From: an uncultured Gammaproteobacteria bacterium
GTDB taxonomy: Bacteria > Pseudomonadota > Gammaproteobacteria > Steroidobacterales > Steroidobacteraceae
Assembly (NCBI GenBank): GCA_963843035.1
Contig: CAWJIS010000002.1
Span: 249,243 to 313,242, forward strand
DNA: 64,000 bases
Direction: 5' to 3'
In this document: in pieces, positions 16,938 through 60,932 of the stretch
Layout of the letters: each line of letters starts with the position of its first letter
How positions within the stretch are numbered: the first letter of the stretch is position 1
Position numbers and translations under genes: made by a program
Notes under the pieces: model-generated
Databases searched by the model: none
What the model saw: only the letters and a program-made list of their open reading frames with translations
What the model was told of the DNA's origin: nothing

Positions 16938-16942
16938 AAGCC

Positions 16943-17629: not shown

Positions 17630-17631
17630 GC

Positions 17632-19089: not shown

Positions 19090-19090
19090 A

Positions 19091-20623: not shown

Positions 20624-20632
20624 GACGCGCGC

Positions 20633-40677: not shown

Positions 40678-41070
40678 ATGGCGCGTGCGACGGCGGACAT
40701 CGGCACCATCAACTACACGACTGCGCTCATGGCGGGCCATCATCCGCTCACCTCCGACGAAGGCCCGGCGCTCGGGGGCAAGGACACCGGTGCCGCTCCG
40801 CATGAGTTGCTGTGCGCGGCGCTGGCGGCCTGCACCGCGATCACGCTGCGCATGTACGCCGAGCGCAAGACCTGGTCGCTGCGGGCGGCCCACGTCGACG
40901 TGCTGTTCCAGCACGACGGGGAAAAACGCACGATGACGCGCCGGCTGCGGCTCGAGGGAGAGCTCGATGAGGCGCAGCGGGCGCGCCTCGCTGACATCGC
41001 CGAGCGCACCCCGGTCACGCTGACACTGAAGCAGGGCGTTGCCATCACGACGATCCTCGAGCCACGCTGA
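40678..41070 (+). CDS. OsmC/Ohr-family protein
   Basis: 130 aa. GAAPHELLCAALAACTAITLRMYA and a C-terminal ...RTPVTLTL are the OsmC family pattern. Confidence 0.8.
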   Translation: MARATADIGTINYTTALMAGHHPLTSDEGPALGGKDTGAAPHELLCAALAACTAITLRMYAERKTWSLRAAHVDVLFQHDGEKRTMTRRLRLEGELDEAQRARLADIAERTPVTLTLKQGVAITTILEPR

Positions 41071-41076
41071 GCCGCC

Positions 41077-42633
41077 TCAAGCGAAGGGTACGGGTGGCGC
41101 ACCTTCACGGCGTGCGCCCCGCGGCAGCGTGCCGACCACGCTCAACACACCCGCGAGTGCCAGGGCGGCCGCGATCCACTGCGTCATCCGCACCGTGTCG
41201 TCGATCGATGTGGCGATGATCGCGTGGGCACGCCGACGCTCCTCATCCGAAAGGGTCTGCGGGAGCGGCGGGATGACGAATCCACCGCGCGCGGCTTCGA
41301 CGGCCTGCCGTACTCCGGTCGTGGCCGGCGGATTCTCGAGGCGCCGCTCCAGGGAATGCGACATGGCCCCGACTGCAACACTGCCGAGCACCGCGATCAC
41401 GAGCAGGCTGCCGACGGAGGCGACCGCATTGTTGATCCCGGAGGCGACGCCGGTGCGATGCGTCGGGACGGCGTTGAGGACCGCCGTGGTGAGCGGTGCC
41501 ACCGTGATGGCCATCCCCAAGCCGAGCACGACCATCGGCACGAGGACGGTCCAATAGGCCTCACGGCTGATTGCCAGTAGCGCAAAGCCGCCCGCCGCGA
41601 TCGTGGGTCCGATGATGAGCGGCCCGCGCGCGCCGAAGCGGTCGATCAGTCCGCCCGACCAGCGCGACAGCAGGCTGAGGATCACCGTGAAGGGGAGATA
41701 TGCCGCCCCGGCGGCCGTCGCCGAAAATCCGCGCGCCTGAATCAACAGGAAGGGCAGAAAGAAAAACCCGCCGCCGAGCCCGCCGTACAGAAGCAGCGTC
41801 AACAGGTTGATCCCACTGAAGGTCGGCGAGTGGAACAGCTCGAGCGGCATCATCGGGGAGGCGCTGCGCCGCTCGGCGATCACGAACAGCACGAGCAATC
41901 CCGCCCCCAGAGCCAGTGAGGCCATCACCGCCGGATGAGTCCAGCCGAGCTCCGAGGACGCAATCAGTCCGTAAACGAGAGTCCCGAGTCCGGCGAACGC
42001 CAGCAAGCTACCCAGCCAATCGACGCCGGGCGGCGCGTCCGGATCGCGGCTCTCGGGCACGCGGCGCAAGGCAATCCAGAGCGTCGGGATTGCGAGCAGC
42101 GGGTTGACGAGGAAGATCACCCGCCATGAGAAGTGGTCGATCAGCCCGCCACCGAGGAGCGGGGCTGCCCCGCCGGCGATGGCCGCCGCGCCCGACCAGA
42201 TGCCGATCGCGGCTCCACGTTCCTTCTCCTCGAAACTGGCGCTGATGAGCGCGAGCGAGCAGGGGACGAGCAGGGCCGCGCCGACGCCGGAGACGACGCG
42301 GGCGGTGAGCAGCATCGCGACACTTGCTGCCAGGCCGCAGCCGAGCGAGCCAACGGCAAATACGCTGGTCCCGATGACGAACATGCGCCGCCGGCCGAAA
42401 CGATCCGCCGCGGCACCGCCGATCAGGAGTAACGCCGACATGCACAGCGTGTAGGCGTTGATCACCCATTGCATCGCCGGCAGCGTGGTGTGCAGCGCGG
42501 CCTCGATGGCGGGCAGGGCCACGTTGACCACCGACTCATCGACGTACGCCAGGGTGGATCCGAGGACCGCGACCGCGAGGACCCAGTACCTGTGCGCGGC
42601 GCAGGCCGGCACGCTCGGATGCGAGCGAATCAC
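41077..42633 (-). CDS. MFS transporter, DHA2 (14-TMS EmrB/QacA-like) family
   Basis: ORF 41077..42771. The N-terminal 46 codons overlap the upstream gene's end, so I prefer GTG 42633 (alternatives: TTG 42651 or 42669). YVDESVVNVALPAI, GGAAADRFGRRRMF and LGLGMA are DHA2 motifs. Confidence 0.8.
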   Translation of the reverse strand: MIRSHPSVPACAAHRYWVLAVAVLGSTLAYVDESVVNVALPAIEAALHTTLPAMQWVINAYTLCMSALLLIGGAAADRFGRRRMFVIGTSVFAVGSLGCGLAASVAMLLTARVVSGVGAALLVPCSLALISASFEEKERGAAIGIWSGAAAIAGGAAPLLGGGLIDHFSWRVIFLVNPLLAIPTLWIALRRVPESRDPDAPPGVDWLGSLLAFAGLGTLVYGLIASSELGWTHPAVMASLALGAGLLVLFVIAERRSASPMMPLELFHSPTFSGINLLTLLLYGGLGGGFFFLPFLLIQARGFSATAAGAAYLPFTVILSLLSRWSGGLIDRFGARGPLIIGPTIAAGGFALLAISREAYWTVLVPMVVLGLGMAITVAPLTTAVLNAVPTHRTGVASGINNAVASVGSLLVIAVLGSVAVGAMSHSLERRLENPPATTGVRQAVEAARGGFVIPPLPQTLSDEERRRAHAIIATSIDDTVRMTQWIAAALALAGVLSVVGTLPRGARREGAPPVPFA

Positions 42634-42698
42634 CAGCTCATCGCAAGGCAATGCTTTGGGGTTCGCCAAGCGGACCTTCGCGCGGGCCTCGCGCAGCT

Positions 42699-44510
42699 TC
42701 AGTGCGCCGACTCGTCGGCCTTGAGCCGGACCTCGGGAAAGTATAGTCCCAGCAAGCGCCGCTCCCACCATTGTCCGCGGGCCTTCGCGCCGGCGTCGCT
42801 ATAGGTGTAGTCGTAGAACCTGGCGCGGATGTAGAGCGGTGGGCTGTCCGGAAAGGGATTCCTGGCGAGGAGCGACGTGACCGCCGGCTCGTTGTGCAGC
42901 AGCCTCTCGAGGAACAGCCAGAACCATCGCAGCCGCTGCGGATCCTCGAGCGCCGCGAACCACATCTGCCAGTCGAGGCGTGGCTGGTGGGGAATGTTCC
43001 AGGGCGGGCGCCGCGACAGATCACCCGGCTTGTAGCGGAATTCGTATTCGCGCCATTCAACCCCGTCGCTCGAGCCCTCGATGACGATCTCGTCGCGTTG
43101 CGTCGTCATGACTGCGAACAGGCCATAGGAGCTCACCAGGTGCAGCGGCTCGATGAGCGCATCGACCGCGCGCGCGGCCGCGGGCGGGCTGCCGCCGAAG
43201 CGCAGGTCCATCTCGATGAGGCTGCAGAACACGAGCAGGCTCGCCACAGCGCCGACCGCGATCCGCCTCACGGCGCGCGGCAGCAGCGCTCGTCCCGGCC
43301 GCGGCATCCAGGCGCGCAGGCGCTGCGGCACGATCCTCGCGACGGCCGCGTCATCGAACAGCGGCAGGCACAACAACATGGTCTGCAGGTTGAACCAGTT
43401 GTAGTTGCCGGTGAGCAGGATGCCACTCTGCAGCAGCAGGAGACCTGCGGCGGCGCAGAAGCGCAGGCGCCGCGGGGTGAAGATGAGGAACGGCAGGCCG
43501 AGCTCGATGGCGAAGGTGCTGCCGGTGGCGAAGGTCAGCACGGCGTGTGGCAGGCGCGCGGCATACCAGGCGAGCGGTGTCGGCAGCGGCTGAGTGAGAA
43601 AGTGGTACGACAGCGCCGACAGGTTCCACCAGTTCGGATCGCCGCTCAGGAGCTTCACCACGCCCGACATGAACATGAAGCGGAACAGCAGCCAGCGCAG
43701 CAGCCAGATTCCCGGGGTGGGAGCGCAGCTCGCGAGCAGCGCGAGGAACCCGGCCTCGAGCAGGAACGTGTCCCACTGGTAGGTCATGAAGGCCTGGCCG
43801 GCGTACAGGAGCGAGAGGTACAAGATATAAAGGAGTAGCAGGCACAGCCGGGGCACGAGATTCAGCGTGAGCAGCACCGCCAGCCCGGCGCCGCCCCAGC
43901 ACACCGTCTGGATGGCGGCATCGCCGGCATTCCACCAGAAGACCATCGGCATGAGGTAGAAACGCTCCCATCCTGCGGCGTGGCGGACCGCATCGAGGAG
44001 CTCGGCGAGCGGCAGGATGCCGTGGCTGCCGATGAGGCCCTGCGCCTGCACGGCGAAGGAGGCGAAGGCCGCGAGGTAGATCAGCCCGAAGAGCCTTACG
44101 AACAGGAAGGAGACGAGCTCGTATCGCGGCGGCCCGTAGTCCCTGCCCCAGAGAAGGAGGCTGATGCGATGAAAGGCCGGTCGGTGCCGGGCGATGAAGG
44201 CGTAAGTCCATTCCGAGAGGGCGGCGAATCCGGGCAGACGGCGGTAGAGCGCCAGCCACAGTCGTTTTCCAGGTGCGTGGCTCAGGGTGAGGAAGCTCGC
44301 CTCGGCCGCGCTCGCACGCCGTCCATCGGGAGCGAGGTACTGAACCGCGCGCTGGAAGTCGGCGAGCGGGATCGCCGGAAACTGCGCCGCGACTTCTTGG
44401 TAAGGCTGGTAGCGGACGCGGTCTCCCGTGAGTTTCTGCCAGTAGCGAGCCCAGTAGCTGCAAAACCCACAGTCGCCGTCGTAGATCAGGAGTGGCGTGC
44501 GAGCGTCCAT
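42699..44510 (-). CDS. Fusion of a DCC-family (DUF393) thiol-disulfide oxidoreductase domain with a lipase-maturation-factor (LMF1-like) polytopic membrane domain
   Basis: ORF 42699..44780; start moved to ATG 44510 (MDARTPLLIYDGDCGFCSYWARYW is the DCC CxxC motif). Then a long hydrophobic domain with LMF-like segments (LIGSHGILPL, FYLMPMVFWWN, YQWDTFLLEAGFLALL, FRYKPGDLSRRPPWNIPHQPRLDWQMWFAAL). Confidence 0.7.
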   Translation of the reverse strand: MDARTPLLIYDGDCGFCSYWARYWQKLTGDRVRYQPYQEVAAQFPAIPLADFQRAVQYLAPDGRRASAAEASFLTLSHAPGKRLWLALYRRLPGFAALSEWTYAFIARHRPAFHRISLLLWGRDYGPPRYELVSFLFVRLFGLIYLAAFASFAVQAQGLIGSHGILPLAELLDAVRHAAGWERFYLMPMVFWWNAGDAAIQTVCWGGAGLAVLLTLNLVPRLCLLLLYILYLSLLYAGQAFMTYQWDTFLLEAGFLALLASCAPTPGIWLLRWLLFRFMFMSGVVKLLSGDPNWWNLSALSYHFLTQPLPTPLAWYAARLPHAVLTFATGSTFAIELGLPFLIFTPRRLRFCAAAGLLLLQSGILLTGNYNWFNLQTMLLCLPLFDDAAVARIVPQRLRAWMPRPGRALLPRAVRRIAVGAVASLLVFCSLIEMDLRFGGSPPAAARAVDALIEPLHLVSSYGLFAVMTTQRDEIVIEGSSDGVEWREYEFRYKPGDLSRRPPWNIPHQPRLDWQMWFAALEDPQRLRWFWLFLERLLHNEPAVTSLLARNPFPDSPPLYIRARFYDYTYSDAGAKARGQWWERRLLGLYFPEVRLKADESAH

Positions 44511-44562
44511 TTGCTTCAGCGCCGCAGGCGGCGTTACTGCGGCCTGCGGTTGGGGCAGCTCC

Positions 44563-45540
44563 TCAGGCGAAGCGGTGACCGAGAATCGCCAGACAGAGCG
44601 TGATGCTGCCGAGCGCGTGAACGCCCAAGGTGAGCTCGATGCTCTTCCTGAGCCGCGGCCGGGCGGCCGATTCCACGCTGATGCCGCGGGCCGCCATGGT
44701 GCCGGCGAGCGCAAGCGCCGCGGCGGGCAGGAGGTACCAGAGCGGCAGCGCGGCGATCGCCACCGCCCCGAGGCTCGCAACGAGCGCGAGCGCGGTCAGG
44801 CCCAGGTAGATGACGCGCGTGCCGACCGGGCCGAGCCGCACGACGAGCGTACGCTTGCCGGCGCGCGCATCCGCGTCACGGTCCGGAACCTCGTTGATCA
44901 GCAGAATGGCCGCCACCCAGGCACCCACCGGGAGCGACACCAGCACTGCCCCGAGATTCACCGGGGCGCCCTGCAGCCACGCCGCACCGAGAACCGGCAG
45001 CGGCCCGAAGCCCACGGCCACCGCCAGCTCGCCGACTCCGCGTGCGGAGAGCTGCACGCCCGGCATCGAGTAAAGGATTCCGAGCGCGAGTCCGGCGAGC
45101 CCGAGCAGCACCACACCTGGGCCGCGCAACAGGGTCAGCACGAAACCGACGACGAGTGCCGCCACCGCCAGCCCGAGCGCAAGACGCGCCATCTCGGCGC
45201 GCGTGAGCAGCCCCGTCTGGATGAAGCGCGATCCGCCCGTGTAAGGGTAGATGCGCTCGCTGTTGCCTTCGTCGGCGCCGATGACGTCATCGCCGACGTC
45301 GTTGTAGACGTTGGTCGCGCCGTGCGCGAGCACCGTGGCTGCGAGGGCGAGCACGAGCAGCAGCCAGTCGACATGCCCGACGGCCGCGGCTGCCCAGGCC
45401 GTGCCGACGAAGACCGGCAGCACCGAGGCGGTATAAAAGGCGGGCCGCGTCGAGAGGAACAGGCGCTTCGCGGCCGCACCGGGCCCGGGTGCGGCGAGTG
45501 CCGGCGAGGGACGGTCGGGGGGATTTGAGGTCGCAGTCAC
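44563..45540 (-). CDS. UbiA-superfamily prenyltransferase, MenA-like
   Basis: ORF 44563..46164; GTG 45540 overlaps the stop of the upstream gene (GTGA). Asp-rich motifs NVYNDVGDD and NEVPDRDADARAGKRTLVV (MenA-type N-x3-D-x3-D...GK-x-TL). Confidence 0.75.
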   Translation of the reverse strand: MTATSNPPDRPSPALAAPGPGAAAKRLFLSTRPAFYTASVLPVFVGTAWAAAAVGHVDWLLLVLALAATVLAHGATNVYNDVGDDVIGADEGNSERIYPYTGGSRFIQTGLLTRAEMARLALGLAVAALVVGFVLTLLRGPGVVLLGLAGLALGILYSMPGVQLSARGVGELAVAVGFGPLPVLGAAWLQGAPVNLGAVLVSLPVGAWVAAILLINEVPDRDADARAGKRTLVVRLGPVGTRVIYLGLTALALVASLGAVAIAALPLWYLLPAAALALAGTMAARGISVESAARPRLRKSIELTLGVHALGSITLCLAILGHRFA

Positions 45541-46265
45541 GGGGTTGGTGAGGTCCGCTCGGGGCTCAGCCCAGCATAGCGCAGTTGGTCGGAGCCGCGC
45601 TTTCCGGGCGCACACCGCTGGGCGACCACGACCTGATAGAGCCCGAGGAACAGCCGCTGCTCCGTCCAGTGGAACAGGTCGGCCCGCTCGGCAAAGCTTG
45701 CGATGGTGCCGCGCCACAGACTCGCCGCATATGGCTCGAGCCAGCGGTTCACGAGCCACATCAGGCCGCGCAGCGGGTGGAACCAGCGCGGACGGGCATA
45801 GTCGACGAACACCGCGCGCCCGCCGGGCTTCAACCGTGCCAGCAGCGCATTGACGGCGCGGCGCTTGTAGGTGTCCGGCATCTCGTGGAGAAGAAAGAAG
45901 CAGCACACGCCGTCGTAGGACTCGCGGCCCGGCGCCGTGGCATCCGCCAGCCTGACGCTGCTGTTCGCGCGCGTGGCGAGCTTCGCGCGCAGGTGCTCGA
46001 CCTGCAGCCGCGAGACGTCGATGACCGTGAGCCGGCCGGCCGGGCCGAGGTGGTCGGCGAGCCTGAGCGGCTGGCTCCCGTAGACGCTGGCAGCCTGTAG
46101 CACGTGCTCGCCCGGGCGGAATTGCGCGCAGGCGGCGCGCACCAGCCGCCCATAGTTGCCCCACAGAATCGCGTTGACGACGAGCTCACGATCGAGCAGG
46201 TGCAGTGATCGCGGGTGCAGGTAGGCCCAGGCGTAGGTCTGCGCGAGGTAGTCGGGTAGAGCCAC
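45537..46265 (-). CDS. rquA: RquA-like class-I methyltransferase-fold protein (candidate rhodoquinone biosynthesis enzyme)
   Basis: 242 aa. N-terminal PDYLAQTYAWAYLHP...VVNAILWGNYGRL. Degenerate SAM motif I VLQAASVYG (46077..46103) in place of VLDxGxGxG. FFLLHEMP and VFVDY segments. From memory this pattern matches RquA rather than UbiE/UbiG. Confidence 0.55.
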   Translation of the reverse strand: MALPDYLAQTYAWAYLHPRSLHLLDRELVVNAILWGNYGRLVRAACAQFRPGEHVLQAASVYGSQPLRLADHLGPAGRLTVIDVSRLQVEHLRAKLATRANSSVRLADATAPGRESYDGVCCFFLLHEMPDTYKRRAVNALLARLKPGGRAVFVDYARPRWFHPLRGLMWLVNRWLEPYAASLWRGTIASFAERADLFHWTEQRLFLGLYQVVVAQRCAPGKRGSDQLRYAGLSPERTSPTP

Positions 46266-46367
46266 CTCCGGATCGACGGCGGCCTCGGCCTGGCGTGGCG
46301 GCCTCCCGGGCTGGGTTGGAGCCGCGAGGCTGTTGGAAGCGTCGATGGCAGGCGACCGGATGGCGCG

Positions 46368-48506
46368 TCAGGGCGGCGGCGGGTTGCCGGCCGCACCGAA
46401 CTGGTAGCGGAAGGTGAGCGCCACCAGGTTCACGTTGTCGGCCCACGGCTGCACGCCGAGCGCCAGCAGGTTCGGGATCGTGCCGGGCCCGACATCGCCC
46501 AGGGCCCAGTCGCTCGAATCGTACTTCTCGTGGATGAAGCGCAGGTGTAGCTGTGCGGCCCGGGTCCACTGGTAGCGCAGGTCGAGCCGGACGCTGTCGA
46601 GGCGGCTCCAGTTCTGCGGGAAGGGCTCGGCAACCCCGCCTGCCTGGGTGTTGAAATCGCCGTACGAGGGCGCGTGGAGGTAGTCGAGGGCGAGCGTCCA
46701 GCGCGTCGCCATCACCCACTGGCCGCCGGCGCCGACGTTCCAGAAATGCTCGGAGTCGCCGACCTGCCAGGGCGCCGTCAGCGCTGCGGTGAACCCGTTC
46801 TGAAGCATGTCCAGCCGCTGATAGCCCCCGTCGATGTAGGCGCTGAAAGTCTCGCGCGGCGTCCAGGTGAGCGTGCTGGAAGCGCGCCGCTCATGCACGC
46901 TCTGCAGGCCGAGCTGCGACAGACGATAGTCATCGTTGGCGAAGAATCCTTCGACCGACCACGCGAGCGTCGCGGTCGCCTGCCACGACCCGGTGAGGGT
47001 AAAGAACTCGCGGTCGCGCGGCGCATAATCGAAGGCCCAGACGAGCGGGTTCTCGGCAGGCGGCAGTGCCGAGACAATGAAACCCGAGGTCTTGCGCGAG
47101 GCGTTGCCGCCCTTGAGCGTGAAGGCCAGTCCGTCGAGCGGCTCGAGCGTCGCGCGCACCCAGTTCTCGGTGTCGCGCGTGTCGCTGACGAGCTCGTCGG
47201 GCCCGAAGTGCGTGTTGAGGTATCTGCCGCCGACGCCGACGCGCAGCCAGCGCTCGAGCGCGTAATCGGCGCTCCCCTCGAGGCGCGTCCGGTCCTCGCT
47301 GTAGCGGGGTGTGGTGAACGCGCCCGCGCTCGGGAAGGTGTCGGTGGCCACATAGGCGAGGGTCAGGGGCGTCGTGTGGTCGTCGCGTCCGTCGTAGGTG
47401 GCATCGCCGCGCAGCGCGAGCTTCGGCAGCGGGTGCGCGGCGAGCCCGAGCGCGTAGTGCGACAGATGCACATCGCCGTCGAGCGCGGACGGCGTCGGGA
47501 CGGTGGCACCCGGCAGGGTGCTGAAGGGCAGAAAGCCCTCATCCTGCTTGAGGCTGCCCACGGATGCGGCGTAGGTGAGGGACGCCCCGAGCCAGTTGAA
47601 CGGCATATTGCCCGCCAGGGCGAACTGCTGCAGGTTGTTGTCCGGCGGCAGCGCGAGCCGCCCCTGGGTCGAGCCGGCGACGAAGGGCAGGTAGGGATTG
47701 GCGAACGTCAGGGAATCGATGTCGTTCTTGAACCAGGAGCCCGTGTAGGTGAGGCGCAGGCTGGCGCGGTGATCGGCCCAGGCCGCCCCGGCCTCGACGG
47801 TATCGGTGACGTAGTCGATCGGCTGCGGTAGCTGCGCGGCCTCGGTGAGGAAGCTGCCGCTGAAGAGACCCGTGCCGTCCTTCTCCTCGTGGCGGAACGC
47901 GGCGTGCAGCGTCCACGCGGAGCTCGCGATGTAGGATCCGAGGAGCGAGGCGGTGCGCCGGTCGTATTCGATGTTCACCGGCGCGAGCGTCGCGCCGAGC
48001 GCGCTCATGCCGGCGGTGCTGCCGGCCGGCACCCAGCTGCCGGGCAGGCTGAGATTACCGCTCCCCGCACCCAGGAAGGGCGTGACGCCGGTATCGTAGA
48101 GCCGTGTTGGTATGTCGTCGTAATCGACCTTGACCTCGAAGCGGCCTTCCCTGCCGACCGAGGCGGTTCCCTGGCGCGAAGCGAGCCCCAGATCCTCGAG
48201 ATCGAAGCTCGCGTTGGTGCCGTCGGCGCCGCGGTACTGCCCGGCGGCCGCGAGATCGGCGTACACGGTGCTGTGGTCGATGCCGGTATAGCGGCCGTAG
48301 CTGAAGTTCGCGCCGTGGGCATCCAGGGCGCCGACCTCGACATCCCCGGTGTAGCCCTCGAAGAAAGGACACTGCTCGCACTTCCACGCGCTGGTATCGG
48401 GTGCGGGGCCATCGGCCCAGGCGGCGCCGGCGGCCGCGAGCAGCGCGACCGCACCCGCGAGGCTCGATCGACGGTGGTGGCCCGAGGCAGGCTTCACGAC
48501 AGGCAT
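46368..48506 (-). CDS. mtrB: MtrB/PioB-family outer-membrane beta-barrel porin of a porin-cytochrome complex
   Basis: 712 aa with a signal peptide. N-terminal CxxC motif WKCEQCPFFEGYTG typical of MtrB. Long alternating beta-strand sequence ending in an aromatic-rich C-terminus. 7 nt downstream of the decahaem gene. Confidence 0.85.
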   Translation of the reverse strand: MPVVKPASGHHRRSSLAGAVALLAAAGAAWADGPAPDTSAWKCEQCPFFEGYTGDVEVGALDAHGANFSYGRYTGIDHSTVYADLAAAGQYRGADGTNASFDLEDLGLASRQGTASVGREGRFEVKVDYDDIPTRLYDTGVTPFLGAGSGNLSLPGSWVPAGSTAGMSALGATLAPVNIEYDRRTASLLGSYIASSAWTLHAAFRHEEKDGTGLFSGSFLTEAAQLPQPIDYVTDTVEAGAAWADHRASLRLTYTGSWFKNDIDSLTFANPYLPFVAGSTQGRLALPPDNNLQQFALAGNMPFNWLGASLTYAASVGSLKQDEGFLPFSTLPGATVPTPSALDGDVHLSHYALGLAAHPLPKLALRGDATYDGRDDHTTPLTLAYVATDTFPSAGAFTTPRYSEDRTRLEGSADYALERWLRVGVGGRYLNTHFGPDELVSDTRDTENWVRATLEPLDGLAFTLKGGNASRKTSGFIVSALPPAENPLVWAFDYAPRDREFFTLTGSWQATATLAWSVEGFFANDDYRLSQLGLQSVHERRASSTLTWTPRETFSAYIDGGYQRLDMLQNGFTAALTAPWQVGDSEHFWNVGAGGQWVMATRWTLALDYLHAPSYGDFNTQAGGVAEPFPQNWSRLDSVRLDLRYQWTRAAQLHLRFIHEKYDSSDWALGDVGPGTIPNLLALGVQPWADNVNLVALTFRYQFGAAGNPPPP

Positions 48507-48513
48507 CCCTTTC

Positions 48514-49443
48514 CTAGCGCATCAGCGCGCGGCCCGACGGATGGTTGGAGCCGTGCACCTGGGTGTGGCAGTTGACGCAGCCGCCGGCGAGCAGATAGGC
48601 GCTCGGCGCCCCGCCGGGCAGGCCTTGCGGGCTGTTGAGGATCGACGGATGCCCGGCGCCTTCGTGGCATTGCTGGCACAGGAACGGCGGCCGCGTCTTG
48701 AGCAGTGCCGGCTGAGCCGAGCCGTGTGCGTCGTGGCAGTTCGAGCAGTCTTCGGCGACCGGCTGATGCTCCCAGAGGAACGGTCCGCGGTATTCGGCAT
48801 GACAGCTGGTGCAGGTCTCGGTCACCGTGTTGGCGACCAGCTGGAACGGTCCCGGCGAGCCGTGCGGCGCATGGCAGGACGCGCAGGCCATCTTCCCCTC
48901 GCGCAGCGGATGATGCGAGGGCTTGAAGAGGTCGGTGTGCTCGGCCTGGTGGCAGCTCGTGCACACCTCGATCTGCGTCGCCGCGGTGAGCACCGGGTCG
49001 TGGGCCGCGTGCAGGGTGTGACAGGCCGCGCACGGCACCTCGCTCGCGGCATGCTGGCTCGTGGCCCACTCGTGTGCGGCGTTGGACTGATGACAGCCGA
49101 GGCACTGCGCATTCTGCCGCGCGGCCGGGGCGAGCGCGTGCGCGCCGAAATCCACGATGCCCGCCGGCTGCTTGCCGCGCGCCCGTACGTGCGCGCCGCC
49201 AGGTCCGTGGCAGGCCTCGCACTGCAGCCCCCCATGGCCGAAGGGGCCGCGGTCGTCCCTGGGACGGGCGTGCTTGGTCTTGAAGAGGCCGAGGAGCGCG
49301 GGATCGTCATGACAGCCGAGGCAGCTGTCGGCGCCTTTGGCGCTGTAGGCGGGAGCACTGTCCTCATTGGCGGCGAGCGCCTGGGTCATCGCGCCCGAGA
49401 GCAGCGCGATGACCAGGGCGGCCCTGGCCGCGGACAGCCGCAT
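48514..49443 (-). CDS. mtrA: MtrA/DmsE/PioA-family periplasmic decahaem c-type cytochrome
   Basis: 309 aa with a signal peptide. Ten CxxCH motifs: CLGCH, CEACH, CLGCH, CAACH, CTSCH, CASCH, CTSCH, CSNCH, CQQCH, CVNCH. Confidence 0.9.
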   Translation of the reverse strand: MRLSAARAALVIALLSGAMTQALAANEDSAPAYSAKGADSCLGCHDDPALLGLFKTKHARPRDDRGPFGHGGLQCEACHGPGGAHVRARGKQPAGIVDFGAHALAPAARQNAQCLGCHQSNAAHEWATSQHAASEVPCAACHTLHAAHDPVLTAATQIEVCTSCHQAEHTDLFKPSHHPLREGKMACASCHAPHGSPGPFQLVANTVTETCTSCHAEYRGPFLWEHQPVAEDCSNCHDAHGSAQPALLKTRPPFLCQQCHEGAGHPSILNSPQGLPGGAPSAYLLAGGCVNCHTQVHGSNHPSGRALMR

Positions 49444-49446
49444 CGC

Positions 49447-51924
49447 TCAGCGATCCGCGACCGGGATGTTGTGCACCACGGCCACGTCCGCGAGAGCCCC
49501 CGGTCCGTGGCACAGCGCGCAGGTCTCGACAGCCGTGCCCGGTATGGTGCGCCCTTCCGCGTCCTTCAGGACCGTGGTCGAGCCGCCCATCTGCATCATG
49601 TGCGACTGGGTCAGGCTGTCGAAGTGGCAGGCCGAGCACACCGCCATGTTGGCCGACGTCGCGATCGGATTGCCGGCCGTGGTCGGATCAGCCGGATTCT
49701 TCGACAGGCCGGTGTCGAAGGTCGTCGCCTGCACCGCGGTGTCATCCACCGGGTAGTAGGTGGCAGAGTTGTGACACATCGCGCAGTCGTTGAGCTGGCC
49801 CGGGAAGACCACGTTGCTGAAGTCACTCACCGATCCACCGAAGCCGTAGATCGCGGTGGGCGCTCCGGCCGCGGCGCGCACGCTGCCCGCGTGGATCATG
49901 TGGAACAGGAAGCGGCCATTGATGGACTGCTCCCACAGGCCGTCGACGCCGACCGCGGTCAGACCCTGGCGCTGACTGACGTCGGTCGAGGCCGGGTTGT
50001 GGCAGGCGACGCAGGCCTGTATGTCGTCGTTGCGATTACTGCCGTGCAGCTCGAGGCGGAAATGGCAGACGTCGCATTTGGCGATATTCACCACCGTGCG
50101 CCGCGGTACTACAGTTCCGCCCGAGACGTTGCCGTACCCCACCGTGGTCGTCACCGGAATGCGGTCCGCGCCGGGTCCGGTCGTGACGACGCCTGGGTGA
50201 CCCTCGAGCACGACGCCGAGGTTGGCGACGGCCGGGCAGGCCGTGGTGCTCGCCGGCGGACAGTTGGCGGCCGGTGCCGCCGGCAGTGCGGTCGTGGAGG
50301 TCAGCGTGAACGACCCGTTCGCCTGTTGCACCGGCGTGATCGCCCCGCCCGCACAGCCGGTACCGGCGAGTGGATTGAGCGAGACCGGCTGGCCCCAGCT
50401 CGCCGCCGCCGGCGCCGCGGCGCTGCCCCAGTTGGTGTAGTCGCTCGTCTCCCAGGCAATGTCGAGCGCCAGCCGTGCCGCGCCACCGCCGGCGCACACC
50501 GGCTTGCCCGTGCCCGGATCGGTGCCCGCAAAGGCCGGGTCCGTCAGGATGTTGTACGGGGCGTTGCTGTTGGTCGGATCGACCACCGAGAAGTTCACGA
50601 CCGGGAAGATGCTGGGAGCGGTCCCCGTGAAGCTGACGCTGTTGACGATGAACTTGAACTTGGTCGCCGCGACCTCGTCCGGAATCGTGTGGGCCGCGAC
50701 CACCTGGATCATTCCGTTATCGATGGTCGAGCTCGGACCATGACAGGTGGTGCACTGGCTGTCGTTGGCCGGCAGGTTCGCAGGACTGTGACCCGCGCCG
50801 GTGGTGAAATTGATGGTGTCGTGGCAGGCGCCGCACGCCTCGATGGTCGGCACCGCGGCATAGTTGCCCGCTTCGGTCGCCGCCGGCAGGTTCTGCTTGT
50901 GGCAGGTGGTGCAGTTGCGGGTGTCCTGCGGGAAGAGCACCGTGTTGAAGTTGTCGAGCGACTTTCCGTGGCCGACTATCCAGTAGCCCTGCGCGAGAGT
51001 TGGCGTGGTGTTGGAACCGGCGTGAAAGTCAGCGCTGCCCGTGAGGGCCAGACCGGGCGGCGTCTGGATGCTCGCCAGCGAGTTGCCCTGGTGGATCTTG
51101 TGGATCATCTGCTTGAAGTCGAGCGGATTGCCACTGTACGGGTCGGTGGTGCTCGGGTTGTGGCACATGACGCAGTACTGCGTCTCGACGCGGGCGCCGC
51201 CGTGCAGCATCAGCTGCGTGTGGCAGCCGTTGCAGGTCTGAAGCTCGATGATCTCGCGGCTGAAGATGCCGGTGGTCGCGCCGGTCGAGGGCTGGAACGT
51301 GTAGGAGCCGTTGTTGGCCTGCGCGAGCCCGCGGATCTCGAAGGCGACGCGATGCGTGAGAGTCGCGTCGTAGGTCACGATCGGATCGGTCTTGACGTCC
51401 TTCAGGAACGTGTACTGGTACGTGCCATCGCCGTTATCGACGAGCGTGCCCGAGGCGCCGTTCTCGGTCGTCGCCTGAGTGGCCGCTGCGGACAGACAAC
51501 TGGTCGCCCCGGTCGGACAACCCGAGGGCGTGACCGTCTGGTAGATGTAGGACTGCCAGGTGCTCGCCGCGCCGTTCTGACCCGGGGTGAGCTTGGCGAT
51601 CACCCAGCCGATGTCAGCGGCGGGCAGGCCCTTGAGCGGCACGCCGTTCTGGTCGGCGAGGGAGAACTTCACGACCGGCGGCGAATTGATGGTGACGCTG
51701 CTGATCGTCCCGACGATCTGCGTCGCCGTGCCGACATCGAGCGCTGCGACTCCGGCGCCGGGGCCCTGCGGGCCCGTGGGTCCGGCCGGCCCGGGCGGGC
51801 CGGCCTGGCCCTGTGGCCCGGTACTGCCGCTGCAGGCGGCGAGGAGCGCGGCGAGAGCGAGAACGGGCAGGCAAGCCCGGGCCGTTTGCTTCGTCAAGCG
51901 TGAGCCGAGGGATTCCCGATGCAT
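49447..51924 (-). CDS. mtrC: MtrC/OmcA-family outer-surface decahaem lipoprotein
   Basis: ORF 49447..52041; start placed at ATG 51924 (MHRESLGSRLTKQTARACLPVLALAALLAAC, lipobox LAAC). Ten CxxCH arranged 5 + 5 around a Cys-poor beta-type domain: CNGCH, CVMCH, CTTCH, CGACH, CTTCH / CDVCH, CVACH, CAMCH, CSACH, CALCH. Confidence 0.8.
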   Translation of the reverse strand: MHRESLGSRLTKQTARACLPVLALAALLAACSGSTGPQGQAGPPGPAGPTGPQGPGAGVAALDVGTATQIVGTISSVTINSPPVVKFSLADQNGVPLKGLPAADIGWVIAKLTPGQNGAASTWQSYIYQTVTPSGCPTGATSCLSAAATQATTENGASGTLVDNGDGTYQYTFLKDVKTDPIVTYDATLTHRVAFEIRGLAQANNGSYTFQPSTGATTGIFSREIIELQTCNGCHTQLMLHGGARVETQYCVMCHNPSTTDPYSGNPLDFKQMIHKIHQGNSLASIQTPPGLALTGSADFHAGSNTTPTLAQGYWIVGHGKSLDNFNTVLFPQDTRNCTTCHKQNLPAATEAGNYAAVPTIEACGACHDTINFTTGAGHSPANLPANDSQCTTCHGPSSTIDNGMIQVVAAHTIPDEVAATKFKFIVNSVSFTGTAPSIFPVVNFSVVDPTNSNAPYNILTDPAFAGTDPGTGKPVCAGGGAARLALDIAWETSDYTNWGSAAAPAAASWGQPVSLNPLAGTGCAGGAITPVQQANGSFTLTSTTALPAAPAANCPPASTTACPAVANLGVVLEGHPGVVTTGPGADRIPVTTTVGYGNVSGGTVVPRRTVVNIAKCDVCHFRLELHGSNRNDDIQACVACHNPASTDVSQRQGLTAVGVDGLWEQSINGRFLFHMIHAGSVRAAAGAPTAIYGFGGSVSDFSNVVFPGQLNDCAMCHNSATYYPVDDTAVQATTFDTGLSKNPADPTTAGNPIATSANMAVCSACHFDSLTQSHMMQMGGSTTVLKDAEGRTIPGTAVETCALCHGPGALADVAVVHNIPVADR
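51757..51819 (-). repeat. Collagen-like G-X-Y repeat just after the lipidated Cys of the MtrC-like protein
   Basis: GPQ-GQA-GPP-GPA-GPT-GPQ-GPG (residues 36-56 counted from ATG 51924). Confidence 0.85.
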
Positions 51925-51971
51925 AAACCACTCCCAAGCGCCGTCTTCGCGGCATTCACCCAATTTCATTC

Positions 51972-51989
51972 TCGCTTTTTTGAAAGCGA
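51972..51989. promoter_or_regulatory. Palindrome upstream of mtrC
   Basis: TCGCTTT-TTTG-AAAGCGA (7-bp arms), 48-65 nt upstream of the proposed mtrC start, in a locally AT-rich 235-bp divergent intergenic region. Confidence 0.3.
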
Positions 51990-52106
51990 AAACAAGATAG
52001 GCACTTACCCTTACGCTTTCATTACGTGGCGGTGCCTGCACGGCTGAGCGCCCCGAATTGACTTGGCCTGCCCCTTGTGGCTACCGTAGAAATTGAGAGG
52101 CATCAC

Positions 52107-52129
52107 AGTCCCCCGACGGTGCGGGGACT
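52107..52129 (+). promoter_or_regulatory. GC-rich stem-loop in the leader of the cytochrome c gene
   Basis: AGTCCCC-CGACGGTGC-GGGGACT (7-bp stem), 30 nt upstream of ATG 52160. There is no upstream same-strand gene for it to terminate. Confidence 0.25.
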
Positions 52130-52159
52130 CCACAATTGCATGCAAAGGGGACATCAGCG

Positions 52160-52765
52160 ATGAGAGCTGCATTACTCGCTGCAACGGCAGCGCTCGGGCT
52201 TCTTCCGGCGGTTGTGCTGGCCGCGCCCGATCCGAAGCTCCTCGAGAGCTGCCAGGACTGCCACGGCGCGAACGGAATCACGGGCGCGCAGGACGTTCCG
52301 ACGATCGCCGGCGTGTCCGCAACTGTGCAGAGCGATGCACTCAAGGCCTACAAGGCAAAGGCGCGGCCCTGCTCGAAGGTCCACTACAAGCGTGGTGACA
52401 CCAAGCGCGAGGGCGATATGTGCACCGTCGCCAAGGATCTGACGGATGCTCAGATCACTGATCTCACGGCGTATTTTGCCGCCAAGCCCTTCAGTGCGCT
52501 TAAGCAGCCCGCCGATGCCGCCAAGGCCGCGGCCGGCAAGCAGATTCACGACCGCGATTGTAAGAAATGTCATTCGTCCGGCGGCAAGGACCCGGCCGAT
52601 GATGCGGGAATCCTGGCCGGCCAGCCCGTTGCCTGGCTGAAGAGCTCCCTCGATTCCTACAAGAAGGGCGCGCTCGAGCAGCCGAAGAACATGAAGAGCG
52701 TCGTCACCAAGCTCTCGGATGCCGACGTCGAGGCGCTCGCCCAGTATTACGCCAGCGAGCAGTAG
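52160..52765 (+). CDS. Periplasmic dihaem class-I c-type cytochrome (c4-like)
   Basis: ORF 52136..52765; ATG 52160 is preceded by AAGGGG. Signal peptide MRAALLAATAALGLLPAVVLA. Two CxxCH motifs (CQDCH, CKKCH) in two repeated halves. Confidence 0.8.
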   Translation: MRAALLAATAALGLLPAVVLAAPDPKLLESCQDCHGANGITGAQDVPTIAGVSATVQSDALKAYKAKARPCSKVHYKRGDTKREGDMCTVAKDLTDAQITDLTAYFAAKPFSALKQPADAAKAAAGKQIHDRDCKKCHSSGGKDPADDAGILAGQPVAWLKSSLDSYKKGALEQPKNMKSVVTKLSDADVEALAQYYASEQ

Positions 52766-52781
52766 CGGGCCGCTCCGCCTC

Positions 52782-53183
52782 ATGAGCGGCACGGCCGCGC
52801 CAACCCGGTCCTTCGAGCCCGATCAGGCGTGGTGGCTGAGGCTGCTTGCCGTGATCGATGCCCGCGATGCGGACGGCTTCGTGTCCTTCCTCGCGCCGGA
52901 TGCCGAGTTCCGCTTCGGCAATGCGCCCGCGGTGCGCGGGCGCGAAGCGATCCGCGCGGCGGTGGCGGGTTTCTTCTCCCTGATCGCCGGCTGCCGTCAT
53001 CGACTGCTCGGCGCGTGGAACGGCCCCGGCACGACGGTCTGCGAGGGTGAGGTGACTTACACGCGCCAGGACGGCTCGACCGTGACGATACCCTTCGTCA
53101 ACGTGTTCGAGCTGCGTGGCGAGCGCGTCGCTTCCTACCGCATCTACATCGACAACGCGCCGCTTTTCGCAGAGGGCTCGTAA
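52782..53183 (+). CDS. SnoaL-like / NTF2-fold protein
   Basis: ORF 52719..53183; start at ATG 52782. WWLRLLAVIDARDADGFVSFLAPDAEFRFGNAPAVRGREAI...FELRGERVASYRIY is the SnoaL/DUF4440 pattern. Confidence 0.65.
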   Translation: MSGTAAPTRSFEPDQAWWLRLLAVIDARDADGFVSFLAPDAEFRFGNAPAVRGREAIRAAVAGFFSLIAGCRHRLLGAWNGPGTTVCEGEVTYTRQDGSTVTIPFVNVFELRGERVASYRIYIDNAPLFAEGS

Positions 53184-53196
53184 GGGTCCGGGATCC

Positions 53197-54204: not shown

Positions 54205-54218
54205 CGGAGCTGCCCGTC

Positions 54219-59367: not shown

Positions 59368-59599
59368 CGGCGCTCTCCCCGAGTCGGGCGGCGAGCTCCT
59401 CGAACAACGCCAGGGTCTTCTCCGCCTCCGCGACGTCGAGGCGGGCAATGGCGAAGCCGGCGTGCACGATGACGTAGTCGCCGACCGCGACCTCATCGAT
59501 CAGCGAGGCCGATACCCGCGTGCGAACCCCGCCAACCTCGGTCTCGATCCACGACTCATCGAGACGCGCTGTCACCAGTACCGGAATAGCGAGGCACAT
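59342..59599 (-). CDS. hypC: HypC/HupF-family chaperone
   Basis: ATG 59599 within ORF 59342..59845 gives the invariant MCLAIP N-terminus. 85 aa; overlaps the hypD start by 26 nt. Confidence 0.9.
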   Translation of the reverse strand: MCLAIPVLVTARLDESWIETEVGGVRTRVSASLIDEVAVGDYVIVHAGFAIARLDVAEAEKTLALFEELAARLGESADAVHPRLP

Positions 59600-59603
59600 G
59601 AGC

Positions 59604-60392: not shown

Positions 60393-60414
60393 CGGTCTCT
60401 CTCCGCTTCAGGAC

Positions 60415-60786: not shown

Positions 60787-60932
60787 CCTGACCCCCCGGA
60801 GACACGCTGGATTTGGTCTCAGACAAAGACCATGCTACGCGCTGGTGCCGGCGCTCGGGTAGTGGAATGCACGTATTGTCGTCCGCGCGCGCGCGTTTCG
60901 ATAATCGGCCACTTTTGCCAGGGGGGATGCAG

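Follow-up and report, generated by a model that had tools for sequence, protein, structure and literature searches.

rquA, a putative rhodoquinone biosynthesis gene, adjoins mtrCAB in an uncultured Steroidobacteraceae bacterium and in other lineages

To our knowledge, what is understood of Mtr-type extracellular electron transfer concerns almost solely systems with menaquinol as the donor, and rhodoquinone (RQ) is known almost solely as the donor to fumarate reductase under hypoxia. RQ (-63 mV) is a low-potential quinone secondarily acquired by Pseudomonadota of the ubiquinone (UQ) type (PMC11707229). RquA by itself turns UQ into RQ in vitro (PMC9814641), and RquA from 15 species has been shown to be functional (PMC11707229). 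The enzyme has an altered motif I, described by Stairs 2018. D118 and D143 of Rhodospirillum rubrum RquA contact SAM, and D118A/D143A abolishes RQ synthesis (Neupane 2022, PMC9814641). A count from 2017 found rquA in just 2 among 2493 genomes of Gammaproteobacteria. For a transferred mtr cluster to work, its recipient must have genes for ccm and for menaquinone (Baker 2022, PMC8805035).

We found that rquA is part of an mtr cluster in a 64-kb stretch of DNA (the window) from an uncultured member of the Steroidobacteraceae. The genes mtrC-mtrA-mtrB-rquA-menA-like-DCC1/LMF1-MFS form a tight, co-directional cluster, and a pdsA-like gene is divergent from mtrC (Table 1). MtrC, MtrA and MtrB all scored over their family cutoffs, in the order mtrC-A-B. 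Homologues of MtrC align only from residue 40 of the open reading frame, which contains the lipobox LLAAC, and the real start is predicted to be, probably, the ATG at 51924. The PdsA-like protein matched NF049874 over its full length with 188 bits, under the cutoff of 330, and we use the label "PdsA-like" only. A motif upstream of mtrC was kept as CACGTACGGA-AAGTACCTATCT in three related loci (L001, L003 and L008; alignment A3).

Table 1. Positions of genes and sequence features in and around the mtr-rquA block
Feature	Position	Strand	Evidence or remark
DHA2-family MFS efflux transporter, last gene of the block	41077..42771	(-)	TIGR00711, 249.5 bits (cutoff 230)
DCC1-like thiol-disulfide oxidoreductase + LMF1 fusion membrane protein	42699..44510	(-)	PF04134, PF06762, PF25179
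MenA/UBIAD1-like polyprenyltransferase	44563..45540	(-)	PF01040, 128 bits
rquA (rhodoquinone biosynthesis enzyme)	45537..46265	(-)	242 aa counted from GTG
Segment D83 (46019..46017) to D108 (45944..45942)	45942..46019	(-)	counterparts of R. rubrum D118, D143
Degenerate SAM motif I, VLQAASVYG	46077..46103	(-)	residues 55-63
Nominal mtrB-rquA gap	46266..46367	(-)	probably part-coding N-terminal extension; candidate ATC start 46346..46344
mtrB, outer-membrane beta-barrel porin	46368..48506	(-)	PF11854, 384 bits; TIGR03509, 335 (cutoff 240)
mtrA, periplasmic decahaem cytochrome	48514..49443	(-)	TIGR03508, 282 (cutoff 192); ten CXXCH
mtrC, OmcA/MtrC-family decahaem lipoprotein	49447..52041	(-)	TIGR03507, 484 (cutoff 209); ten CXXCH
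Conserved motif 5' of mtrC (GCGTAAGGGTAAGTGCCTATCT)	51995..52016	(-)	candidate operator/promoter element
PdsA-like periplasmic dihaem cytochrome c	52160..52765	(+)	two CXXCH, signal peptide
SnoaL_2 (NTF2-like) protein	52719..53183	(+)	PF12680 match

Within the block, successive genes are separated by 3, 7 and 102 (or 21) nt, then by a 4-nt overlap and then by 52 nt. The last distance is that from the ubiA stop to the DCC1/LMF1 start in an independent gene call. Co-transcription of the mtr-rquA block is inferred. A promoter and terminator scan of positions 44400-46700 detected neither a sigma-70 consensus nor a terminator on the gene strand, and was uninformative at 69% GC. An Rfam scan of 41000-53500 gave no match, and no convincing FNR box (TTGAT-N4-ATCAA) was seen by eye in the mtrC-pdsA and mtrB-rquA spacers. 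There is no sign of a compositional island, because GC is even (0.65-0.74) over 36-58 kb. The mtr-rquA adjacency is not a binning artefact, since an independent Logan assembly of one sequencing run (L175) has the identical order mtrA-mtrB-rquA-ubiA. The window also encodes cydAB, two hydrogenase systems, hyp genes and a HiPIP.

We found that the rquA product is a full-length match to the RquA family. The NCBI equivalog HMM NF038261 scored 283.4 bits (cutoff 175; E 1.2e-84), with residues 3-217 matching model positions 1-218, the whole of the 218-position model. The best-scoring UbiE/MenG model gave 28.1 bits, its cutoff being 378. Pfam detected class I methyltransferase domains of a generic kind and, weakly, Ubie_methyltran (25 bits). 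An AlphaFold model had a Rossmann class I methyltransferase fold (pLDDT 86, pTM 0.83), and a fold search with this model returned generic class I methyltransferases. A PDB sequence search returned distant methyltransferases only, and a solved RquA structure was not found there. The nearest named homologues carry the RquA annotation.

The characteristic motifs of the family were also present. In place of the GxGxG loop there is QAASVYG, with no exception among the aligned family members: L56, Q57, A58, A59, V61, Y62 and G63 were unchanged in 16 homologues (alignment A1), and VLQAASVYG aligned with VLDVGCGIG of the canonical methyltransferase RebM (PDB 3bus). The segments ALPDYLAQTYAWAYLHP...VVNAILWGN, FFLLHE (residues 123-128) and VDY (154-156) were all found and were invariant or nearly so over the 16 homologues. 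D83 and D108 were invariant in the same alignment, and their 25-residue spacing and context are those of D118/D143; the numbering was transferred via a homologue from Rhodospirillum sp., not from R. rubrum RquA directly. An earlier note, made from the sequence without database searches, had proposed a methyltransferase-fold protein of RquA rather than UbiE/UbiG type, and had named the degenerate motif I with its position, the N-terminal segment, FFLLHE and VDY. All of this was borne out. Membership of the product in the RquA family is thus, as judged by sequence and predicted structure, fully supported; the activity itself is inferred.

The start of rquA is uncertain, which the earlier note had missed. 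That note put rquA about 100 bp downstream of mtrB on the same strand, and the distance from the mtrB end to the rquA GTG measured 102 nt. In the rquA frame, this 102-nt spacer lacks ATG, GTG and TTG codons altogether. Its translation in this frame is a peptide conserved over six related loci, and in all six the spacer keeps the frame although its length varies by 19-29 codons. In two relatives (P0011 and P0012), the exact position of the window's conserved ATC is occupied by an ATG. Given the in-frame peptide and these ATG codons, a smaller gap is possible: rquA may start upstream of the GTG at 46265, and the true mtrB-rquA distance may be just 21 nt, both of which are readings of sequence alone. 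Read-through of the mtrB TGA into rquA was also considered. In the window and in L001, L002 and L008, the mtrB stop and rquA share a frame. We rejected read-through since L003 and L004 are out of frame and the conserved peptide starts only at the ATC.

We observed members of the RquA and MtrCAB families linked to each other in several lineages. The earlier note had asked whether the linkage recurs in other genomes; it does so in two Steroidobacteraceae clades, in Burkholderiaceae and in further metagenomic lineages. Among the eight closest genomes (type A), six had mtrCAB followed by rquA (L001-L004, L007 and L008), with RquA 77-87% identical to that of the window. Two of the nine closest relatives (L005 and L006) kept rquA-DCC1/LMF1-MFS and had no mtr genes. 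The DCC1/LMF1 gene followed rquA in every type-A relative, including the two without mtr, and the position of the MFS gene was kept in five (L001, L002, L005, L006 and L008).

A second Steroidobacteraceae clade (type B) comprised 19 loci with RquA 57-64% identical. Here rquA was flanked by cytochrome genes on one side and by ccmA-I on the other (ccmA-I in 18/19). In many of the loci the cytochrome block included a CbcL-like fusion of multihaem c and cytochrome b, and mtr genes lay within 10 kb of rquA in 8 of the 19. At loci L032 and L037 a CymA-like gene adjoined rquA. In Burkholderiaceae, all three sampled contigs (L169-L171) had mtrCAB-rquA; two of them also had cymA (L169 and L170), and two had frdABCD (L170 and L171). 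Two metagenome loci (L092 and L094) had mtrCAB-rquA-frd, and in a third (L101) rquA was divergent from cymA-mtrCAB-ccm. The mtr-linked RquA proteins occupied at least four separate positions on a neighbour-joining tree of RquA, which was built without support values. No mtr genes were found in our genome scan at alphaproteobacterial or Rhodocyclales-type (Thauera, Azoarcus) rquA loci. Fumarate reductase, the classical partner of rquA, also follows it in Burkholderiaceae, which the earlier note had missed.

The gene behind rquA was a second, unexpected finding. Its GTG start and the rquA stop share a GTGA, so that it is translationally coupled to rquA; this coupled prenyltransferase had gone unnoticed in the earlier note. 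Its family is recurrently linked to mtrCAB: genes of the family were tightly linked to mtrCAB without rquA in 4/5 sampled homologues and in three further loci (L086, L090 and L156). The protein barely exceeded the cutoff of TIGR00751 menA (105.7 bits against 102.15) and fell short of NF004751 (133 against 264) and, likewise, of six other MenA models. Its best PDB match was UBIAD1, and NCBI names its relatives "prenyltransferase" only. The family travels with SnoaL_2 and Coq10-like proteins; SnoaL_2 homologues adjoined mtrB or the MenA-like gene in ten loci (L001-L003, L008, L090, L156, L166 and L172-L174). Conceivably, the MenA-like enzyme could supply a second low-potential quinone.

Based on these results we suggest, with a confidence only somewhat above even, that a functional RquA in the mtr block supplies RQ as a low-potential quinol pool that feeds MtrCAB in the outward direction. 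RquA would convert UQ to RQ (about -63 mV), with SAM as the amino donor and Mn2+ as the cofactor; where an Mtr conduit is built for extracellular electron transfer, part of the high-potential UQ pool would thereby be made low-potential. Electrons would pass from the low-potential quinol to an inner-membrane quinol dehydrogenase, to periplasmic cytochromes, to MtrCAB and on to Fe(III)/Mn(IV) minerals, and RQ would take the place that menaquinone has in Shewanella. Production of RQ in this organism, use of rhodoquinol as the Mtr donor and outward (reductive) flow are all inferred. More broadly, the recurring pairing suggests that UQ-type bacteria use RQ as a low-potential carrier toward extracellular minerals. 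The functional link is inferred from comparative genomics and thermodynamics, without experiment, and RQ measurements, transcripts and genetics exist for no carrier organism. A UQ-based host is consistent with the quinones of cultured Steroidobacteraceae, in which Q-8 is the main quinone (PMC7966939). The 64-kb window holds no UQ biosynthesis genes. It holds no inner-membrane quinol dehydrogenase of the CymA, NetBCD or CbcL type either, so the step that oxidises rhodoquinol is not seen at this locus; the enzyme may be encoded outside the window. Other points also count against this reading. Two of the closest relatives keep rquA without mtr; if the adjoining MenA-like gene supplies menaquinone, as it could, RQ would be redundant for Mtr; and in Burkholderiaceae, where rquA precedes frdABCD, the link could be to fumarate reductase.

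In an alternative reading, the region is a general anaerobic island: RQ would serve other consumers, such as fumarate reductase, the adjacency to mtr would reflect clustering of co-regulated low-oxygen genes, and rhodoquinol would not be an Mtr-specific donor. We regard this as unlikely. In its favour, frdABCD follows rquA in the four mtr-linked loci with frd described above, frd flanks rquA in three others (L038, L053 and L060), and the cydAB, hyp and hydrogenase genes of the window fit a low-oxygen respiratory island. Stairs 2018 also reported rquA near respiratory and anaerobiosis genes generally, including those for NiFe hydrogenase. However, no fumarate reductase was found in the window, and none of the type-A or type-B loci of Steroidobacteraceae had frd within 10 kb; in these loci rquA immediately adjoins mtrB, CymA- or CbcL-like candidates, or ccm. 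The adjacency also survives rearrangements and spans classes. Electron flow could instead be inward, with Mtr importing electrons from Fe(II), minerals or cathodes and RQ as the membrane acceptor. The MtrAB homologues MtoAB and PioAB are oxidising in some bacteria (Baker 2022, PMC8805035), and the window encodes a HiPIP and hydrogenases. We nevertheless give inward flow only a slim chance. As inferred from the potentials, transfer of Fe(II) electrons to RQ (-63 mV) is less favourable than to UQ, which would leave RQ without an advantage in this direction. In our scan rquA occurred only with MtrC-containing clusters and in none of approximately 60 MtrC-less MtoAB/PioAB-type loci, and the cluster has a PdsA-like gene here and, like that of metal reducers, cymA and frd in Burkholderiaceae.

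The remaining alternatives concern what RquA makes. Its neighbours leave some room for a head group other than that of UQ, on which RquA and the MenA-like enzyme would both act to give a dedicated, possibly undescribed, Mtr quinone. Consistent with this are the GTGA coupling, the tight linkage of the MenA-like family to mtrCAB in lineages free of rquA, its marginal standing on one MenA model and failure on the others, and its association with SnoaL_2 and Coq10-like proteins. The window RquA, however, is well over the equivalog cutoff, RquA alone suffices to make RQ from UQ (see above), and no MenA-like gene adjoins rquA in type-B or Burkholderiaceae loci; we therefore consider a different head group very unlikely. 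We are almost as doubtful about the related proposal that RquA and the MenA-like enzyme may make a dedicated low-potential quinone rather than plain RQ-8, with Mtr clusters carrying their own quinone-tailoring genes. Such a quinone might be of a prenylated naphthoquinone type or aminated, made from a salvaged head group, and the SnoaL_2 and Coq10-like proteins may contribute as helpers; in that case, this quinone system would also include the DCC1/LMF1 membrane oxidoreductase and the MFS exporter. That the protein is instead an ordinary UbiE/UbiG-type C- or O-methyltransferase mistaken for RquA has next to nothing in its favour. Pfam offers only the generic domains and the weak Ubie_methyltran match, and JGI labels many homologues "SAM-dependent methyltransferase" or UbiE, but the NF038261 and UbiE/MenG scores refute this identity, and the invariant QAASVYG and the RquA annotation of the nearest named homologues also stand against it.

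If rhodoquinol does feed the conduit, the conserved mtrCAB-rquA module would represent a second physiological role for RQ. It would explain how UQ-only soil and sediment Proteobacteria (Steroidobacteraceae, Burkholderiaceae) run a conduit with haems too low in potential for ubiquinol. Baker 2022 named a gap, the recipient's need for genes for cytochrome maturation and a low-potential quinone; here both travel with the cluster. Elsewhere, the module is accompanied by cymA, ccm and frd. rquA could be a one-gene route to Mtr-competent, UQ-only chassis strains for bioelectrochemistry, and mtrCAB-rquA could be a genomic marker of metal-reducing potential in uncultured lineages. The rquA gene family itself is not new, and its close homologues carry the RquA annotation already. 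In the literature available to us, which did not cover subscription journals, we found no publication linking RQ to Mtr; the papers on rhodoquinone and extracellular electron transfer, as judged from titles and abstracts, did not deal with such a link.

Compared with known systems, the window protein is closest to R. rubrum RquA (Rru_A3227) and the NF038261 family. It shares the class I fold, a motif I in which Gln replaces the acidic residue, and the counterparts of D118/D143, and it is 52% identical to a Rhodospirillum sp. homologue. Unlike R. rubrum RquA, it is found in a gammaproteobacterial family and lacks a canonical N-terminal start codon. Its gene is in an Mtr operon, instead of standing alone or among frd or respiratory genes. 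The same enzyme and the same quinone operate in RQ-dependent fumarate reduction (RquA with Frd/complex II in R. rubrum, anaerobic eukaryotes and many Betaproteobacteria). The Burkholderiaceae loci, L092 and L094 recall that system, with rquA directly between mtrB and frdABCD, whereas rquA has no fumarate reductase nearby, either in the window or at any of the Steroidobacteraceae loci examined. The UbiA-superfamily gene behind rquA resembles MenA/UBIAD1 in just passing TIGR00751, but it is an orphan beside mtrCAB and is not within a men locus.

Geobacter CbcL, as reportedly described by Zacharoff et al. 2016, combines in one protein a multihaem c-type domain and a cytochrome b of the HydC/FdnI type. 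In many type-B relatives, a protein of 656 aa that resembles it is encoded next to rquA, with multihaem c and a C-terminal cytochrome b561/FdnI-like domain, although the b-type domain matches are weak (24-26 bits, under cutoffs); no CbcL homologue was found in the window. The divergent PdsA-like dihaem cytochrome gene next to mtrC recalls the NetBCD-PdsA-MtrCAB system of Aeromonas hydrophila and Vibrio. That likeness is limited by its score below the model cutoff and by the absence of netBCD.

The nearest parallel to the conduit is CymA-MtrCAB of S. oneidensis, whose gene order is identical and whose MtrC, MtrA and MtrB families the window proteins match over cutoff. Shewanella has CymA, whereas the window has no cymA; the Burkholderiaceae, L032, L037 and L101 clusters encode cymA or a CymA-like protein. 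The donor in Shewanella is menaquinone, and that proposed here is RQ derived from UQ. The mtr cluster of the window also contains quinone-tailoring genes, which Baker 2022 (PMC8805035) did not report. The proposed logic is nonetheless that of Shewanella: a low-potential quinol would pass electrons to a periplasmic relay and from there to an outer-membrane conduit.

We found that the gene downstream of mtrB encodes RquA. Its 242-aa open reading frame, with a GTG start, matched the whole of NF038261 (NCBIfam RquA equivalog) at 283.4 bits (cutoff 175, E 1.2e-84), versus 28 bits or less for UbiE, MenG and other NCBIfam methyltransferase models. The earlier note had called the gene RquA-like rather than UbiE/UbiG-like; these scores bear that out and rule out an ordinary methyltransferase. 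Pfam recognized only generic class I methyltransferase domains. All the motifs quoted in the earlier note are in the reading frame (ALPDYL..Y.WAYLHP..VVNAILWGN, VLQAASVYG, FFLLHE, VDY). The degenerate SAM motif I, VLQAASVYG, is at residues 55-63 (window 46103..46077) and aligns opposite VLDVGCGIG of RebM, a canonical methyltransferase. L56, Q57, A58, A59, V61, Y62 and G63 of this motif were invariant in an alignment of 16 homologues, as were D83 and D108, which have the spacing and context of D118 and D143 of R. rubrum RquA. Joint mutation of that pair abolished rhodoquinone (RQ) synthesis (PMC9814641). An AlphaFold model (pLDDT 86, pTM 0.83) had a Rossmann methyltransferase fold; its PDB matches were generic SAM-dependent methyltransferases only, and no RquA structure was found in the PDB. 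The nearest homologues that have a name, 86% identical, carry the annotation 'RquA [Steroidobacteraceae bacterium]'. Based on the profile, motif, aspartate, fold and homologue evidence, we conclude that the gene is RquA, and we infer with high confidence that it makes RQ. The family is known and already recognized by public annotation; PGAP would name this gene correctly.

As also claimed, rquA is directly downstream of mtrB on the same strand, with the end of mtrB 102 nt upstream. The same mtrA-mtrB-rquA-ubiA order was present in L175, an independent Logan assembly of a sequencing run, and the adjacency is therefore not an assembly or binning artefact.

Features of the mtr-rquA region and its surroundings (window coordinates unless another locus is named)
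Feature	Position	Strand	Remarks
cytochrome bd oxidase cydAB	2176-4855
HiPIP	10718-11107
group-4-like membrane-bound NiFe hydrogenase/complex-I-like module	13981-21154
DHA2 MFS exporter	41077..42771	-	end of co-directional block; true start uncertain
DCC1-like/LMF1 fusion	42699..44510	-	overlaps MFS ORF as listed
MenA/UBIAD1-like prenyltransferase	44563..45540	-	52 nt to DCC1-like/LMF1 gene
rquA	45537..46265	-	4-nt GTGA overlap with MenA/UBIAD1-like gene
mtrB	46368..48506	-	102 or 21 nt to rquA
mtrA	48514..49443	-	ten CXXCH; 7 nt to mtrB
mtrC	49447..~51924	-	lipobox LLAAC, ten CXXCH; 3 nt to mtrA
hydrogenase maturation and uptake cluster	53197-63772
HypX/HoxX-like gene	56513-58231		formyltransferase and enoyl-CoA hydratase domains
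CbcL-like 656-aa protein	L082 5048-7018	-	homologues in L009-L015, L018, L020, L044

The spacer between mtrB and rquA (46266-46367(-), 102 nt) has no ATG, GTG or TTG when read in frame with rquA. Nevertheless, the peptide it would encode, ..[IV]I[DN]AS[NRD][SN][LF]A....AADPEVA[LV]PDY, is conserved in six related loci, and the frame is kept across segment lengths of 19 to 29 codons. One close relative (L003) has GTA in place of the start GTG. Two related RquA proteins, P0011 and P0012, begin with MSTPNTLAVSAR and MVAAMSTSNTLAAS, and their ATG is at the exact position of a conserved ATC in the window (46346..46344). All more distant RquAs among the 16 aligned have N-terminal extensions of 20-55 residues. 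We infer that here too the extension is coding, perhaps from the ATC, in which case just 21 nt would separate rquA from the mtrB stop. The spacer thus suggests a non-canonical or recently lost start. Because R. rubrum RquA can do without its first 40 residues (PMC9814641), either the GTG or an upstream start would give an active core. The stop codon of mtrB, TGA, shares the rquA frame in four loci.

The listed mtrC open reading frame (49447-52041(-), 864 aa) probably starts too far upstream: alignments to homologues begin at residue 40, and the ATG at 51924 yields a lipoprotein signal peptide (…LALAALLAAC). Divergent from mtrC are genes for a SnoaL_2 protein and a PdsA-like periplasmic dihaem cytochrome, whose 188 bits on NF049874 fall short of the cutoff. 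Between the pdsA-like gene and mtrC, ~70 nt before the probable start of mtrC, is a conserved ~22-nt motif (51995-52016(-); in relatives CACGTACGGA-AAGTACCTATCT, with a GTAC-N5-GTAC core), a candidate operator or promoter on sequence grounds. Local sequence scans found no terminator, sigma-70 consensus, Rfam element or GC anomaly.

The DCC1-like/LMF1 gene encodes a membrane protein, a DCC1-like thiol-disulfide oxidoreductase fused to an LMF1 (lipase maturation factor) domain. It is 3' of rquA in every one of the closest relatives (type A), including L005 and L006. The fusion had no NCBIfam match, and to assign it to quinone-linked thiol redox chemistry would be guesswork.

Together, cydAB, HiPIP, hydrogenase, mtr and rquA make the window a low-oxygen energy-metabolism region. 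The group-4-like module has two antiporter-like subunits, a NuoH-like subunit, and 49-kDa and 20-kDa subunits; the other hydrogenase cluster contains hypE, hypF, the HypX/HoxX-like gene, hypD, hypB, hypA and genes for the small and large NiFe hydrogenase subunits. Synteny with the mtr block extends to hypE and SnoaL_2 in L001-L003, L008 and L090. No fumarate reductase (frd), CymA, NetBCD or CbcL-type quinol dehydrogenase is encoded in the 64-kb window.

We found that the linkage recurs in other genomes, a check that the earlier note had proposed: it is present in type A, type B, Burkholderiaceae and metagenome loci. An RquA alignment was run against a single genome for each GTDB species, and the resulting 80 loci were searched with the window's proteins. 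The eight type-A loci are from Steroidobacteraceae MAGs (RquA 77-87% identical). In six (L001-L004, L007, L008), mtrCAB is directly upstream of rquA on the same strand; L005 and L006 keep rquA-DCC1/LMF1-MFS and lack mtr and the MenA-like gene. Type B comprises 19 loci from a second Steroidobacteraceae/Gammaproteobacteria clade (RquA 57-64% identical). There rquA is first in a ccmABCDEFGHI operon for cytochrome maturation (18/19), a cytochrome block adjoins it in most loci with the upstream flank recovered, and mtrCAB, mtrAB or mtrC is within 10 kb in 8 of the 19. A CymA-like gene directly adjoins rquA in L032 and L037. The type-B cytochrome block includes a 656-aa protein, encoded beside rquA, with a CbcL-like layout: multihaem c domains plus, at the C-terminus, a membrane domain that is cytochrome b561/FdnI-like. 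This protein is a candidate for a quinol dehydrogenase; its b-type domain matches are weak (24-26 bits). Many type-B loci have, directly upstream of rquA, a gene for a 261-aa membrane protein (L082 9206-9991(+) and homologues), tagged PF27139 Aq_1264_TM in precomputed annotation and without a match in local Pfam or NCBIfam copies. The genome scan found no mtr or ccm at alphaproteobacterial, Thauera or Azoarcus rquA loci, several of which have a classical frd neighbourhood.

In a reciprocal scan of metagenome contigs with an MtrA alignment, rquA was adjacent in 3 of ~12 MtrC+MtrA+MtrB loci with usable flanks, and in 0 of ~60 MtrC-less (MtoAB/PioAB-type) loci. Two had mtrCAB-rquA-frd (L092, 295 bits; L094, 302 bits); in the third (L101, 193 bits) rquA is divergent from cymA-mtrCAB-ccm. 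All three RquA scores exceed the cutoff. The L094-type RquA belongs to Burkholderiaceae, where rquA was directly 3' of mtrB in 3/3 sampled database homologues; L169 and L171 have a small cytochrome c gene in between. L169 and L170 have the order Crp/Fnr | cyt c-cymA-mtrC-(HHH_3)-mtrA-mtrB-rquA, and frdABCD directly follows rquA in L170 and L171. In a neighbour-joining tree, mtr-linked RquAs were spread over no fewer than four places: types A and B took one each, L092 was nested within alphaproteobacterial-type sequences, and L094 and L101 shared a deep branch. Hence the linkage is either old and has been kept, or has formed repeatedly; both histories speak for functional coupling.

The MenA-like product was just above cutoff for TIGR00751 (105.7 versus 102.15) and below cutoff for other MenA models; its best PDB relative was UBIAD1. 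It has thousands of relatives, which go by the names 'prenyltransferase' or 'DHNA octaprenyltransferase'; leaving aside the window's own clade, the closest share ~63-68% identity. Four of five sampled homologues are directly 3' of mtrB with no rquA there; each of the four has a CymA-like gene close to mtrC, and three have an antisense SnoaL_2 gene between mtrB and the MenA-like gene. The fifth is beside a Crp/Fnr regulator, cytochrome c, a Coq10-like START protein and SnoaL_2. In three metagenome loci (L086, L090, L156) the MenA-like gene takes the place of rquA directly after mtrB. At these four homologues and three metagenome loci, the usual companions are a CymA-like gene and an antisense SnoaL_2 gene; the loci concerned in the family's link to mtrCAB are L086, L090, L156, L165/L166, L172, L173 and L174. 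Ubiquinone (UQ) producers already have bifunctional UbiE and polyprenyl diphosphate synthase. As a speculative reading, an orphan MenA might enable such cells to turn DHNA, endogenous or salvaged, into (demethyl)menaquinone; if true, this would be a second way for an Mtr cluster to own a low-potential quinone. A Coq10-like START/Polyketide_cyc protein, which may be a quinone-binding helper, is encoded next to rquA at several loci of alphaproteobacterial type (L038, L053, L060, L061, L064, L077) and next to the MenA-like gene elsewhere (L086, L165, L167).

RquA by itself turns UQ into RQ (PMC9814641), a secondarily acquired low-potential quinone (~ -63 mV) of UQ-type Pseudomonadota that seldom co-occurs with menaquinone (PMC11707229). 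The main quinone of cultured Steroidobacteraceae is Q-8 (PMC7966939). Mtr-dependent reduction in Shewanella requires CymA and menaquinone, and an mtr cluster that has been transferred relies on its new host for ccm and menaquinone genes (Baker et al. 2022, PMC8805035). We infer that in a UQ-type host rquA would provide the low-potential quinol, and that an inner-membrane dehydrogenase (CymA-like or CbcL-like where visible, unseen in the window) would oxidise it and pass electrons through periplasmic cytochromes to MtrCAB. By inference we favour outward, reductive flow, because rquA is restricted to MtrC-containing clusters and neighbours frd in Burkholderiaceae. Reverse, oxidising flow would get no thermodynamic help from RQ, and rquA was not seen at the ~60 MtoAB/PioAB-type loci scanned.

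Our results might also indicate that RquA and the MenA-like enzyme produce a different quinone, a notion consistent with the GTGA coupling of their genes and with how strikingly the MenA-like family is tied to Mtr. However, RquA is known to be self-sufficient, the equivalog score is strong, and many rquA-mtr loci have no MenA-like gene. Alternatively, the region could be a general anaerobic island in which RQ serves frd or other enzymes. The absence of frd near rquA in Steroidobacteraceae, and the specific neighbours there (mtrB, cymA, the CbcL-like gene, ccm), count against this, even though frd adjoins rquA in Burkholderiaceae and the window has hydrogenase and cyd genes. On balance we lean, with moderate confidence, towards a role of RQ in serving Mtr.

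That rquA and, as a separate case, the MenA-like gene keep a conserved place in or beside mtr clusters, with differing combinations of ccm, cymA and frd, appears unreported. The searched literature yielded nothing pairing rquA with mtrCAB or rhodoquinone with MtrC, and the papers in it that mention both rhodoquinone and extracellular electron transfer were, by title and abstract, not about such a link. Mtr is not among the respiratory neighbours of rquA given by Stairs 2018 (PMC5953543). Baker 2022 gives cytochrome, ccm and haem passenger genes and no quinone-tailoring genes, and we found no mention there of a MenA-like gene linked to mtrCAB (PMC8805035). Overall, we file the locus as an Mtr extracellular-electron-transfer module equipped with rhodoquinone synthesis, whose RquA has the same altered SAM motif I that is a known trait of the RquA family (PMC5953543).
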